Source of the DNA: Methanobacteriota archaeon | Lineage (GTDB): Archaea; Thermoplasmatota; Thermoplasmata; RBG-16-68-12; JAJISG01 | Direction: 5' to 3' | NCBI GenBank assembly: GCA_030594205.1 | Contig: JAUVFR010000006.1 | Span: forward strand, 629-64,628 | DNA length: 64,000 nucleotides | In this document: positions 44,531 through 47,500 of the stretch, piece after piece | Numbering within the stretch: the stretch's first letter is position 1 | How the letters are laid out: the number at the start of each line of letters is the position of its first letter | Program-made: the position numbers and the translations under genes | Notes under the pieces: model-generated | What the model saw: only the letters and a program-made list of their open reading frames with translations | The model's database searches: none | Told to the model about the DNA's origin: nothing

Positions 44531-47500
44531 TGCGGTTGACCACGCTGTCTGGGGAATGGCTTGGCTCGGGCGCCGACGAAGGTCGTGCCAAGCTGCGAAA
44601 TGCGCCGGGTAGGCGCAAGGAACCTGTGATCCGGCGATGACCTAATGGGACTTCCCATCCCTTCGGGGATGCTCCGTAAGGAGCGGTAACCCGCCGAAGT
44701 GAAGCATCTTAGTAGGCGGAGGAAAAGAAATCAACCGAGATGCCCTCAGTAAAGGCGATCGAAGAGGGCCCAGGGCAAACCGAATCCCTCTCCGTAAGGG
44801 GAGGGAGATGTGGGGTTTGGACCCCGGCACTCCCGGCCTCGCGAACCCGAAGTCTCCTGGAACGGAGCGCGAAACAGGGTGATAGCCCCGTAGGGGTATG
44901 CGAGGTGGGAGATTCGGGGGATCCCGAGTACCGTGCGTCGGAAATCGCGCGGGAAGTTGGGAGGCATAGACTTCCAACCCTAAACACGACCCGAGACCGA
45001 TAGCGCAGTAGTAGCGTGAGCGAAAGCTGCAAAGTACCCTTGACGGGAGGTGCAAAGAGCCTGAAACCAGATAGCTACAGACTGATGGGGCGTGAAAGCG
45101 ACGAAGCCGCAAGGTGGAGCAGCGTTCCATCGTCCGTTTAGAAAAACGGGCCAGGGAGTTCTGACCGATGGCGAGGTTAACCCCGTAGGGGGGAAGCCGT
45201 AGCGAAAGCAACAGGCCCGCAACCCGCAAGGGCGAGGGGCGTGGTGGGCTCGCCAGGAGTCGTCGGTGGGATACCCGAAGCCAGTCGATCTACGCCTGGG
45301 TAGGTTGAAGCCTCCCGAAAGGGAGGTGGAGGACCGAACGGGTGCTGATGTGCAAATCGCTCCGATGACCTGGGTGTAGGGGTAAAAGGCCAATCTAGAC
45401 TGGGAATAGCTGGTTCCTCCCGAAACTACTCGCAGGTAGACCTCGGGCGAGGCTGACGGTGGGGTAGAGCTACGGATTGAGCGTTTAGGGGGAGAAATCC
45501 CTCGGCGCCCTGTCAAACTCCGAACCTGCCGTCGTCGTAGACCCCGGGAGTGAGGGCGTGTGGGGTAAGCTCCACGTCCGCAAGGGTAAGAACCCAGCCT
45601 GAGGTTAAGGCCCCTAAGCGTCGGCTCAGTGTATCAAAGGGCGTCCATGGTCCCAAACAGCGGGGAGGTAGGCTTAGAAGCAGCCACCCTTCAAAGAAAG
45701 CGTAACAGCTCACCCGCCGAGACCACGGGCACCGAAAATGGACGGGGCTAAGCCGACCGCCGATACCTCAGGACGCCGAAAGGTGATTTGGTAGGGAGGC
45801 GTCGTGCGCGGGTCGAAGCGGGGTCGTGAGGTCCCGTGGACCGCGTTCGAATGAGAATCCTGGCAGGAGTAGGAGCAAAGTGCCGTGAGAATCGGCACCG
45901 CCGCAGGGGCTAGGGTTCCTCGGCAATGTTCGTCAGCCGAGGGTTAGTCGATCCTAAGGCCGTCCTTAATCGAGACGGTCGAAAGGGAAGCAGGTCAATA
46001 TTCCTGCACTCCACCGGACCTTGCCCAGGGCCTGACGCATCGGGGTAGGTCGAGCGCGGTAGCCACCGTGTTGAAGCGTCGAACCCTCCTGAGTGCCGTA
46101 ATGGCGAGACGGGGGCGAAGGCGCGATAAGGAGGGCGCAAGTCCTCTTCGGCTGATCCCCGGTGCCCGTGAAAAGGGCCTTGGGGCCATCCGGCGGATCC
46201 GTACCGAGAACCGACACAGGTGCCCCTGGGTGAGAAGCCCAAGGCGCGTCGGTGTAATCCAGGCGAGGGAACTCGGCAAATTAGCCCCGTACCTTTGGTA
46301 GAAGGGGTGCCAGTCGCGTGAGTGGCTGGTCGCAGTGACTAGGGGGCTCCGACTGTTTAATAAAAACGTAGGCGGCAGCTAGCCCGAAAGGGTGTGTATT
46401 GCCGTTGAAGCCTGCCCAGTGCCGGTACCTGAATACCGGGTTCAACCGGAGGAAGGGCCGGTAAACGGCGGGGGTAACTCTGACCCTCTTAAGGTAGCTA
46501 CCAACTGCCTTAGTAAAATCCGGCTATATGCTGGGAAACCTGAGGATCCCACGCTACTGGCCCTCGGGCCAGTGACAATGCGATGGGTGCAGGCAATCAG
46601 CAGGAAAGGCCGGAACTCGAAACAGTCGATTTCCGGAATCCTCAGAGACTATACGCCGGACATCGAATCAGCGATGATGAGATAGTCCGACCCCCATGGC
46701 GACATGGGGAGGTGATCAGAAATGGTCGCCCGCCTCCCATTTTGAGGTCATGAAAGCAACAGACGTGAGCGTAGTACCTTGCCGCTTAATTGGCGGCTTG
46801 CATGAAGGCCCAACGAGAGCCCCACTGTCCCCGCCTGGAAGCCGCTGAAACTGACTTACTGGCGCACAGTCCAGTACCCCCCAACTGAAAGCAAAGACCC
46901 CGTGGAGCTTTACTGCAGCCTGTTGCTGCGGTATGAGGTTCGACGTGTAGGGTAGGCGGGAGCCGTTACAAAGGGCCGGCCGCTAGGTCGGTACCGAGGC
47001 ATCGATGAAACACCGCCCCTCGTGCTTCGTGCCGCTGACCTCTTCGGAGGGACAACGATAGGTGGGCAGTTTGGGTGGGGCGCCACGCCCTCAAAAATCT
47101 AACAAGGGCGCCCAAAGGTCGGCTCAGGTAGGTCAGAAATCTACCGTTGAGCGCAAGGGCAAAAGCCGGCCTGACGTGGATGGGCCCAACGACCATCGAC
47201 GATGCGAAAGCAGGGCCTAGCGAACCGACCAGGCCTATTTATGAGGCCGGTCGATGACAGAAAAGTTACCCCGGGGATAACTGAGTTGTCTCCAGCAAGA
47301 GTTCACATCGACCTGGAGGCTTGCTACTTCGATGTCGGCTCTCCCTATCCTGGTGGTGCATTAGCTGCCAAGGGTGCGGTTGTCCGCCGATTAAAAGGGA
47401 TCGTGAGCTGGGTTTACACCGGCGTGAGCCAGGTGTGTTGCTCTTCGTTGGGGGTGTCTTGGTGCCTGAGGGGAAGGATCCCTGAGTACGAGAGGAACGG

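Follow-up and report, generated by a model that had tools for sequence, protein, structure and literature searches.

What interrupts the 23S ribosomal RNA (rRNA) gene of an uncultured marine-sediment archaeon, and by what means could the gene work despite the interruption? The question is posed by a 64,000-nucleotide (nt) stretch of contig JAUVFR010000006.1 (positions 629 to 64,628; assembly GCA_030594205.1, Thermoplasmata), here called the window, in whose coordinates positions are given unless another locus is named. Its large-subunit (LSU) rRNA gene carries an insert which we regard as very probably a group I intron without an endonuclease, lodged after U1931 (Escherichia coli numbering) of the single 23S rRNA gene. 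The identity, boundaries and fold of this insert, selection on the fold and its patchy presence among relatives are matters of direct observation, presented below.

The host gene matches the archaeal LSU model, RF02540, over model positions 1-2987, and the window extends 44 kb and 16 kb to either side of it (Table 1). It was the one LSU rRNA gene found in the assembly (G000; 1.54 Mb in 69 contigs, with an estimated completeness of about 94%), and an Rfam-type search of the window revealed no small-subunit (SSU) rRNA, 5S rRNA or transfer RNA genes beside it. Alignment to RF02540 is continuous save for a single unaligned block of 273 bases, between GACCCUCUUA and GUGAGCGUAGUACC. Both ends of the insert carry the letters AGC, so that four equivalent cut pairs with the same joined product are possible. 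Only one of them, 46495|46496 ... 46767|46768, leaves the 5' exon ending in U and the intron ending in G, and the intron is thus 46496-46767, 272 nt in length. In the numbering of the E. coli K-12 rrlH gene the U of UAAGGU|AGCG is nucleotide 1931 and that of ACGGU|CC is 1923; exon alignment together with the rrlH sequence equates U46495 of the window with E. coli U1931. We refer to these two sites as LSU/1931 and LSU/1923, and to introns residing there as L1931 and L1923 introns.

Group I identity follows from a match to RF00028 at 46466-46709, which scored 68.7 bits against a gathering threshold of 50 (E 2.5e-15 over the whole window). The first ~30 positions of that model fall on exon helix 69, and the 5' end of the intron was taken from the exon alignment. 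Checked base by base, the helices of the fold form completely in the window. P1 (UUAAGGU/GCCUUAG) has 7/7 pairs, with a U.G wobble at the splice site and two further pairs reaching into the intron; the remaining helices comprise P3 (6/6), P4 (6/6), P5 (4/4), P5a (7/7), P5b (8/8), P6 (4/4), P6a (10/10), P7 (GGACUA/UAGUCC, 6/6), P8 (5/5), P9 (7/7), P9.1 (8/8) and P9.2 (5/5). P2 is absent. P7 and P3 form a pseudoknot in which P7 is, by its fold, the guanosine-binding helix. A 2-bp P10 could form if the first two bases of the 3' exon replaced intron bases 1-2 opposite C46505 and U46506.

This examination bears out most of the original prediction, which had been made from the letters of the DNA. 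It had placed a 272-nt insert at 46496-46767, after the U equivalent to E. coli 1931, a position upheld by the LSU alignment and rrlH numbering; it had called the insert a group I intron, as the RF00028 score above its threshold now attests, and the gene archaeal, in keeping with RF02540. The P1, P3, P4, P6, P7, P8 and GNRA-capped P9 helices and the omega-G that it had named were all located, its four quoted core motifs are present in the sequence, and its P7 (GACUA 46647-51 / UAGUC 46683-87) lies within the 6-bp helix given above. Its claim that the intron holds no homing endonuclease likewise stood, as described further on.

Two competing signals in this region were considered and set aside. 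A pairing of GGGAGG 46707-12 with CCUCCC 46733-38 is perfect in the window, but its 3' partner is unconserved and P9, P9.1 and P9.2 were preferred. A match to the Moco riboswitch at 46629-46770 (15.6 bits against 36, E 0.82) was attributed to chance.

That the fold is maintained by selection is evident from an alignment of eight L1931 and three L1923 introns with 8-nt exon flanks, drawn from nine genomes. RNAalifold recovered P1, P3-P6a, P8, P9, P9.1 and P9.2 from these 11 introns, with compensatory changes in 35 of 69 pairs. P7 and P9.0 were added to this structure manually, giving 77 pairs, of which 36 show double-sided changes. Standard pairs occupy 97.9% of cells (77 pairs, 11 introns); displacing the 3' partner by 1-3 columns leaves only 31-41%. 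Shuffled alignments reached the observed value in 0/500 cases for four of five measures and in 27/500 for the measure of further pair types, although the aligned introns are kin and these counts consequently overstate significance; the slid-partner control preserves relatedness and is the fairer of the two. P7 was predicted by no fold program, and its last pair covaries (AU in four introns, GC in four, UA in three). The guide sequence of the three L1923 introns is GGGGGU, complementing their exon ACCCU. All 11 introns keep the U.G of the splice site and the terminal G. Substitutions relative to introns of the same genus tell a similar story on a shorter time scale: 5/6 touched pairs still pair in the comparison with genome G005 and 5/7 in that with G006. 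In a DNA contig from sequencing run X1 that spans all 661 nt of the compared stretch, 10 of 11 differences from the window sit within the intron. The fold of the L1931 intron is under continuing selection.

Table 1. Host gene, intron and helices in window coordinates
Feature	Position	Strand	Evidence
Host gene, archaeal 23S rRNA, sole copy found in assembly	44526..47721	+	RF02540 2722 bits
5' exon end UUAAGGU (P1 5' strand), 5' splice site after U46495	46489..46495	+	U.G in 11/11 aligned introns
Intron, 272 nt, without protein gene	46496..46767	+	LSU alignment, RF00028, Pfam-negative frames
P1 continuation and loop 46496-46506; internal guide sequence GCCUUAG 46507-46513	46496..46513	+	Base-by-base check, alignment
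P3 5' strand, pairs with 46655-46660	46519..46524	+	6/6 pairs; double changes in 2/6
P4 (46530-34 / 46597-601) enclosing P5, P5a, P5b	46530..46601	+	Base-by-base check, alignment
P5 46539-42 / 46590-93; P5a 46548-54 / 46580-87; P5b 46555-62 / 46567-74, loop CUCG	within 46530..46601	+	
Conserved ACAAU bulge in P5 arm	46575-79	+	
P6 46602-05 / 46639-42; P6a hairpin 46610-20 / 46626-36	46602..46642	+	Pairing check, alignment
P7 5' strand G(A)GACUA, bulged A46646; pairs with UAGUCC 46683-46688	46645..46651	+	6/6 pairs
P3 3' strand	46655..46660	+	Pairing check, alignment
P8, minimal 5-bp hairpin, 6-nt loop	46661..46676	+	Double changes in 4/5 pairs
J8/7 AUGAGA, then P7 3' strand UAGUCC	46677..46688	+	RF00028, pairing check
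P9.0 5' half AC 46690-91 (with GU 46765-66); P9, GCGA tetraloop 46699-46702	46690..46709	+	Pairing check
P9.1 46711-18 / 46723-30, GAAA tetraloop 46719-22	within 46711..46748	+	Double changes in 5/8 pairs
P9.2 46732-36 / 46744-48	within 46711..46748	+	Double changes in 2/5 pairs
3' tail: conserved GAAAGCAACAG motif, P9.0 3' half, omega-G 46767	46749..46767	+	Terminal G in 11/11
3' exon start AGCGUAGUACCUU	46768..46780	+	Sequence

The intron's 3' tail carries a further conserved element. Every L1931 and L1923 intron of the order carries the GAAAGCAACAG motif (46749-46764) or a near variant, as do some L1931 introns of bacteria; the introns at 16S position 1498 described below lack it. Inspection by eye yielded no pairing partner for the motif, and the tail is too invariant in the 11 sequences for covariation.

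Nine stop-to-stop frames of 25-100 amino acids (aa) overlap the intron, and none matched a Pfam family at E<=0.01; nor were LAGLIDADG_1 or LAGLIDADG_2 genes found in the G000 genome. A homing endonuclease, by which a mobile group I intron is recognised, is thus lacking from the window's copy. Relatives display the life cycle that is customary for introns of this type. Among 61 related genomes, 22 gave RF00028 matches and 18 of these exceeded the cut-off; the sites concerned are LSU/1931, LSU/1923 and SSU/1498. The exon stretch around the LSU sites is present in 27 of the 61: LSU/1931 is filled in 12, LSU/1923 alone in one, both are empty in 13, and one shows a run of N. Two of the 12 also hold an L1923 intron, 8 nt upstream. 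In these tandem arrangements (L012:1274-1796 of G031; L028:1170-1699 of G023) the two introns are separated by the 8-nt exon CUUAAGGU, and neither bears an open reading frame (ORF). Within the window's genus the intron is found in G005 (94% identical) and G006 (91%) and is absent from G001. Identity to the window's copy falls from 91-94% within the genus to 65-74% across families, and is about 70% to the L1923 introns. The introns of the order (L1931 in G005, G006, G057, G027, G031, G050, G023 and G008; L1923 in G031, G019 and G023) share the window's fold helix by helix, the variable parts being the loops of P1 and P9.2 and the tips of P5b and P6a. Runs of N beginning at or within the L1931 insert leave its occupancy unreadable at L050 (G024) and its length unreadable at L023/L054 (G038).

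The orthologous L1931 intron of the sister-genus genome G008 measures 717 nt, with an extra insertion in P6 and a smaller one in P5b, and encodes a 197-aa single-motif LAGLIDADG_1 protein (E 1.7e-23; L024:1533-2126, minus strand) whose reading frame begins upstream of the P6 insertion and runs through the P5/P4 ribozyme core. Because this ortholog aligns with the window's intron apart from the insertions and carries LAGLIDADG_1, the window's copy is the endonuclease-free state of a homing intron, of which the genus holds both filled and empty alleles. In one frame the window's intron retains the G008-matching peptide-coding letters SDNAMGAGNQQER, the gene itself being gone. Beyond the order, more than 121 genome records contain a 16-base core pattern. 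The matches listed come mostly from Bacteria, of many phyla; the best bacterial introns among those listed are 70-76% identical to the window's over at least 200 nt, which makes them as close as introns from other families of the host's own order.

How new is such an intron? The original prediction had described group I introns in archaea as known mainly from computational surveys, and it overrated the novelty of the find. Nawrocki, Jones & Eddy 2018 (Nucleic Acids Research (NAR) 46:7970, PMC6125680) list 39 archaeal group I introns, 27 of them of subtype IB4, and 15 of these 27 reside at LSU/1931, the commonest archaeal IB4 site, all of whose introns they class as IB4. By the coordinates in their Table 1, eight of the 15 are only 248-464 nt long, a size that implies the absence of an endonuclease gene; the shortest has 248 nt, and introns of 248 and 281 nt come near the window's 272 nt in size. 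The same authors describe LSU/1923, the then-new SSU/1498 site and a tandem 1923/1931 pair in KP308720.1 (PMC6125680), and both companion sites recur in the window's order. Their archaeal introns thus agree with the window's in domain, host gene, site, discovery by covariance model and origin in metagenome-derived genomes. The hosts, however, differ: theirs are Thaumarchaeota, DPANN phyla, Aigarchaeota and a few 'Euryarchaeota', and their table does not name Thermoplasmata. In their search RF00028 gave no significant hits, whereas the window's intron scores 68.7 bits with the model of the current Rfam release. As archaeal LSU/1931 introns, small gene-less ones included, have been in print since 2018, the present find is correct but ordinary, and of little importance in itself. 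The architecture, which lacks P2 and combines an extended P5 arm and a minimal P8 with P9.1 and P9.2, fits the IB4 introns of PMC6125680, as does the IB-like look that the original prediction ascribed to the core motifs. The IB4 label is putative, being drawn from the missing P2 and the LSU/1931 site, and depends on the scheme adopted.

The L1931 introns of bacteria and organelles (Thermotoga, Simkania, Synechococcus, algal organelles) treated by Haugen et al. 2007 (PMC1995217) share with the window's the site, the absence of P2 and a complex P5 region, and that paper terms the bacterial ones IC1-like minus P2. They have single-motif LAGLIDADG genes and lengths of 654-700 nt, in contrast to the window's copy, which is 272 nt long, has no ORF and belongs to an archaeon; the G008 frame, running from a peripheral loop into the core, resembles the L1931 ORFs as that paper portrays them. 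Self-splicing has been shown for the Thermotoga L1931 intron and is predicted for the window's. A literature search by title and the start of the abstract, covering few subscription journals, returned no papers on such introns in Thermoplasmata and none in which the splicing of an archaeal group I intron was assayed.

By analogy to group I introns already characterised, catalysis and cellular splicing would run as follows. The guide GCCUUAG would pair with the exon end UUAAGGU, so that the U.G wobble falls at the cut; a guanosine from outside, bound by P7, would attack after U46495; G46767 would next occupy the P7 pocket, held by the 2-bp P9.0; and the freed exon end would attack after G46767, the joined exons restoring a normal H69-H71 region. 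Since the assembly holds one LSU gene, it may fairly be inferred that the intron must splice for this 23S copy to function. Because it has no endonuclease, the intron is unable to drive its own homing and persists by descent; it is probably in the course of being lost, or regained from endonuclease-bearing copies such as that of the sister genus.

Contigs from three RNA runs (X15, X16 and X20) and one DNA run (X1) were compared with the locus. Joints that skip exactly 46496-46767 were found in one contig of X15, with 30 letters on the short side, and in one of X20, with 22. A number of points nevertheless weaken the case for splicing. The exon-joining contig of X15 bears 46380T>G, 46434T>G and 46442T>A, which are variants of G001, a genome of the same genus whose DNA is without the intron, and for this reason it is no evidence of splicing; more generally, the joined contigs of X15 and X20 are unassignable to the window's organism. 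X15 also contains intron-bearing contigs, one of which (record 9) crosses the 3' junction into exon 2; precursor, rRNA that stays unspliced or residual DNA may account for them. X16 offers loose ends only, carrying exon letters of relatives. Furthermore, a binned genome may have collapsed several rRNA copies into one, and P10 has only 2 bp and is unconserved in relatives.

Several other accounts of the insert deserve consideration alongside splicing by the intron's own RNA. The group I fold might be present while the insert stays in mature 23S rRNA near helix 69, as the L1931 intron of Simkania negevensis reportedly does; record 9 of X15, running from intron into exon 2, would suit such retention. 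Retention alone would not, however, explain the compensatory changes seen within the genus and across the order, or a splice-site U.G and a terminal G that vary in none of the 11 aligned introns, and record 9 differs at seven positions and may be DNA or precursor of another strain. We judge retention to be very improbable. Dependence on a protein is easier to entertain, albeit still unlikely in our estimation. Many group I introns depend on helpers, and this ribozyme might need a chaperone of the host or a LAGLIDADG maturase acting in trans, in which case there would be no physiological self-splicing. The weakness of P10 agrees with such a need, as does the protein of the Thermotoga L1931 intron, to which maturase-like activity is ascribed by Hausner et al. 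2014 (PMC3984707). On the other hand, the G000 genome yielded neither of the LAGLIDADG_1 and LAGLIDADG_2 gene types, its four LAGLIDADG_3 matches consist of three within open frames of 1092-1233 aa and one beside the 16S gene, and the GNRA-looped P9 and P9.1, together with the extended P5 arm, would be the usual stabilisers of a fold held by RNA only.

The remaining two accounts dispense with the ribozyme or with the locus itself. Archaeal rRNA introns are by default expected to be removed by the splicing endonuclease at a motif of the bulge-helix-bulge (BHB) type (PMC6125680), in which two 3-nt bulges hold the cuts, a 4-bp helix lies between them and further helices flank them. Over all four cut pairs, no BHB motif was found: the best arrangement scores 7/10 with 3/4 central pairs, a level attained (score >=7) by 65% of 1000 random site pairs of the LSU gene and hence due to chance, and the insert fits the group I model throughout, so that this route has only the slenderest likelihood. 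Nor do we attach any appreciable weight to an assembly artefact by which another organism's intron was mis-joined into the contig. The rRNA regions of binned genomes are indeed prone to chimerism, and a contig 98% identical to the 16S end of G000 has been filed under a bacterial bin. The insertion site, however, is occupied by this intron in two more genomes of the genus (91-94% identical), the independent DNA run X1 holds the whole 661-nt stretch with its intron in one contig (record 1), and the window runs on for 44 kb and 16 kb beyond the gene.

With a gene-less group I intron as the favoured reading, the value of the locus lies in its setting. It adds to the known hosts an order of marine-sediment archaea in which LSU/1923, LSU/1931 and SSU/1498 are filled in roughly a third of the genomes (22/61). 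Filled and empty alleles in one genus, and forms with and without endonuclease in one family, make up a natural series for the cycle of gain, decay and loss. At 272 nt, and with a fold backed by covariation, the intron is also a convenient candidate for a first biochemical test of an archaeal group I ribozyme. Finally, rRNA introns split the 23S and 16S genes in binned genomes, and annotation and marker pipelines must be able to recognise them.

The 16S gene of the same genome (G000:C29) bears a second gene-less group I intron, of 240 nt, after U1498 (L002:1511-1750; RF00028, 66 bits). It is 59% identical to the L1931 intron overall, possesses the P2 hairpin and lacks P9.1 and P9.2, and its P5 arm is a near letter-for-letter match to that of the window's intron. 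Records labelled Thermoplasmata and Methanobacteriota are 83% identical to the end of this 16S gene together with its intron. About 207 nt past the 3' end of this 16S gene stands a free-standing 181-aa LAGLIDADG_3 gene (PF14528, E 1.4e-12; L184:1192-1812 on the plus strand, G000:C29), the protein of which has two motifs with an acidic residue in each. The cassette is about 900 nt long and flanked by a repeat of ~87 nt. Among relatives, 7 of the 11 16S loci with the intron are followed by a LAGLIDADG_3 gene, as are none of the 14 loci without the intron (12 of which have 1483 nt of downstream sequence), and both states occur within three genera.

A wider view is afforded by 80 metagenome loci encoding LAGLIDADG_3 relatives, which were sorted by script. 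The gene lies 164-240 nt downstream of the 16S end in 33 of them, and these include 25 with an intron of 227-249 nt, two with none (L236, L244) and six that could not be judged. It lies inside the position-1498 insert in 17, probably in three more, and in 27 the 16S motif was unmatched by the patterns used. Rfam searches, run for 20 of the 80, bore out the two arrangements among archaea and, among bacteria, the one with the gene inside the insert. Tsurumaki et al. 2024 (PMC11270868) encountered LAGLIDADG_3 only in 16S inserts of bacteria of the candidate phyla radiation (CPR), position 1498 included.

We tentatively raise the possibility, without giving it even odds, that the gene-less rRNA introns of the order are moved in trans by outside endonuclease genes, a proposal that concerns the position-1498 intron and not the window's. 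To our knowledge, such 'collaborative' or trans homing has so far been described for phages; if the proposal is true, it would here act on a cellular rRNA gene. The two loci with a LAGLIDADG_3 gene and no intron argue against a simple model in which the intron protects the target. For the window's L1931 intron, the matching reading is that it may be rescued by endonuclease-bearing copies of related species.

Two lesser observations concern the same protein family and the same 16S gene. The other LAGLIDADG_3 matches of the genome (G000:C48:87347-87580, C64:269619-269897 and C34:12179-12391), being those within the long open frames mentioned above, are probably intein-borne endonuclease domains. 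The contig filed under a bacterial bin is L105 (JBDLKA010000228.1, 1941 nt; Krumholzibacteriota), whose 98% identity to the 3' end of the G000 16S gene extends over 501 nt, position-1498 intron included; to judge from this match, JBDLKA010000228.1 seems to be of archaeal origin and to have reached the bacterial genome through a binning error.

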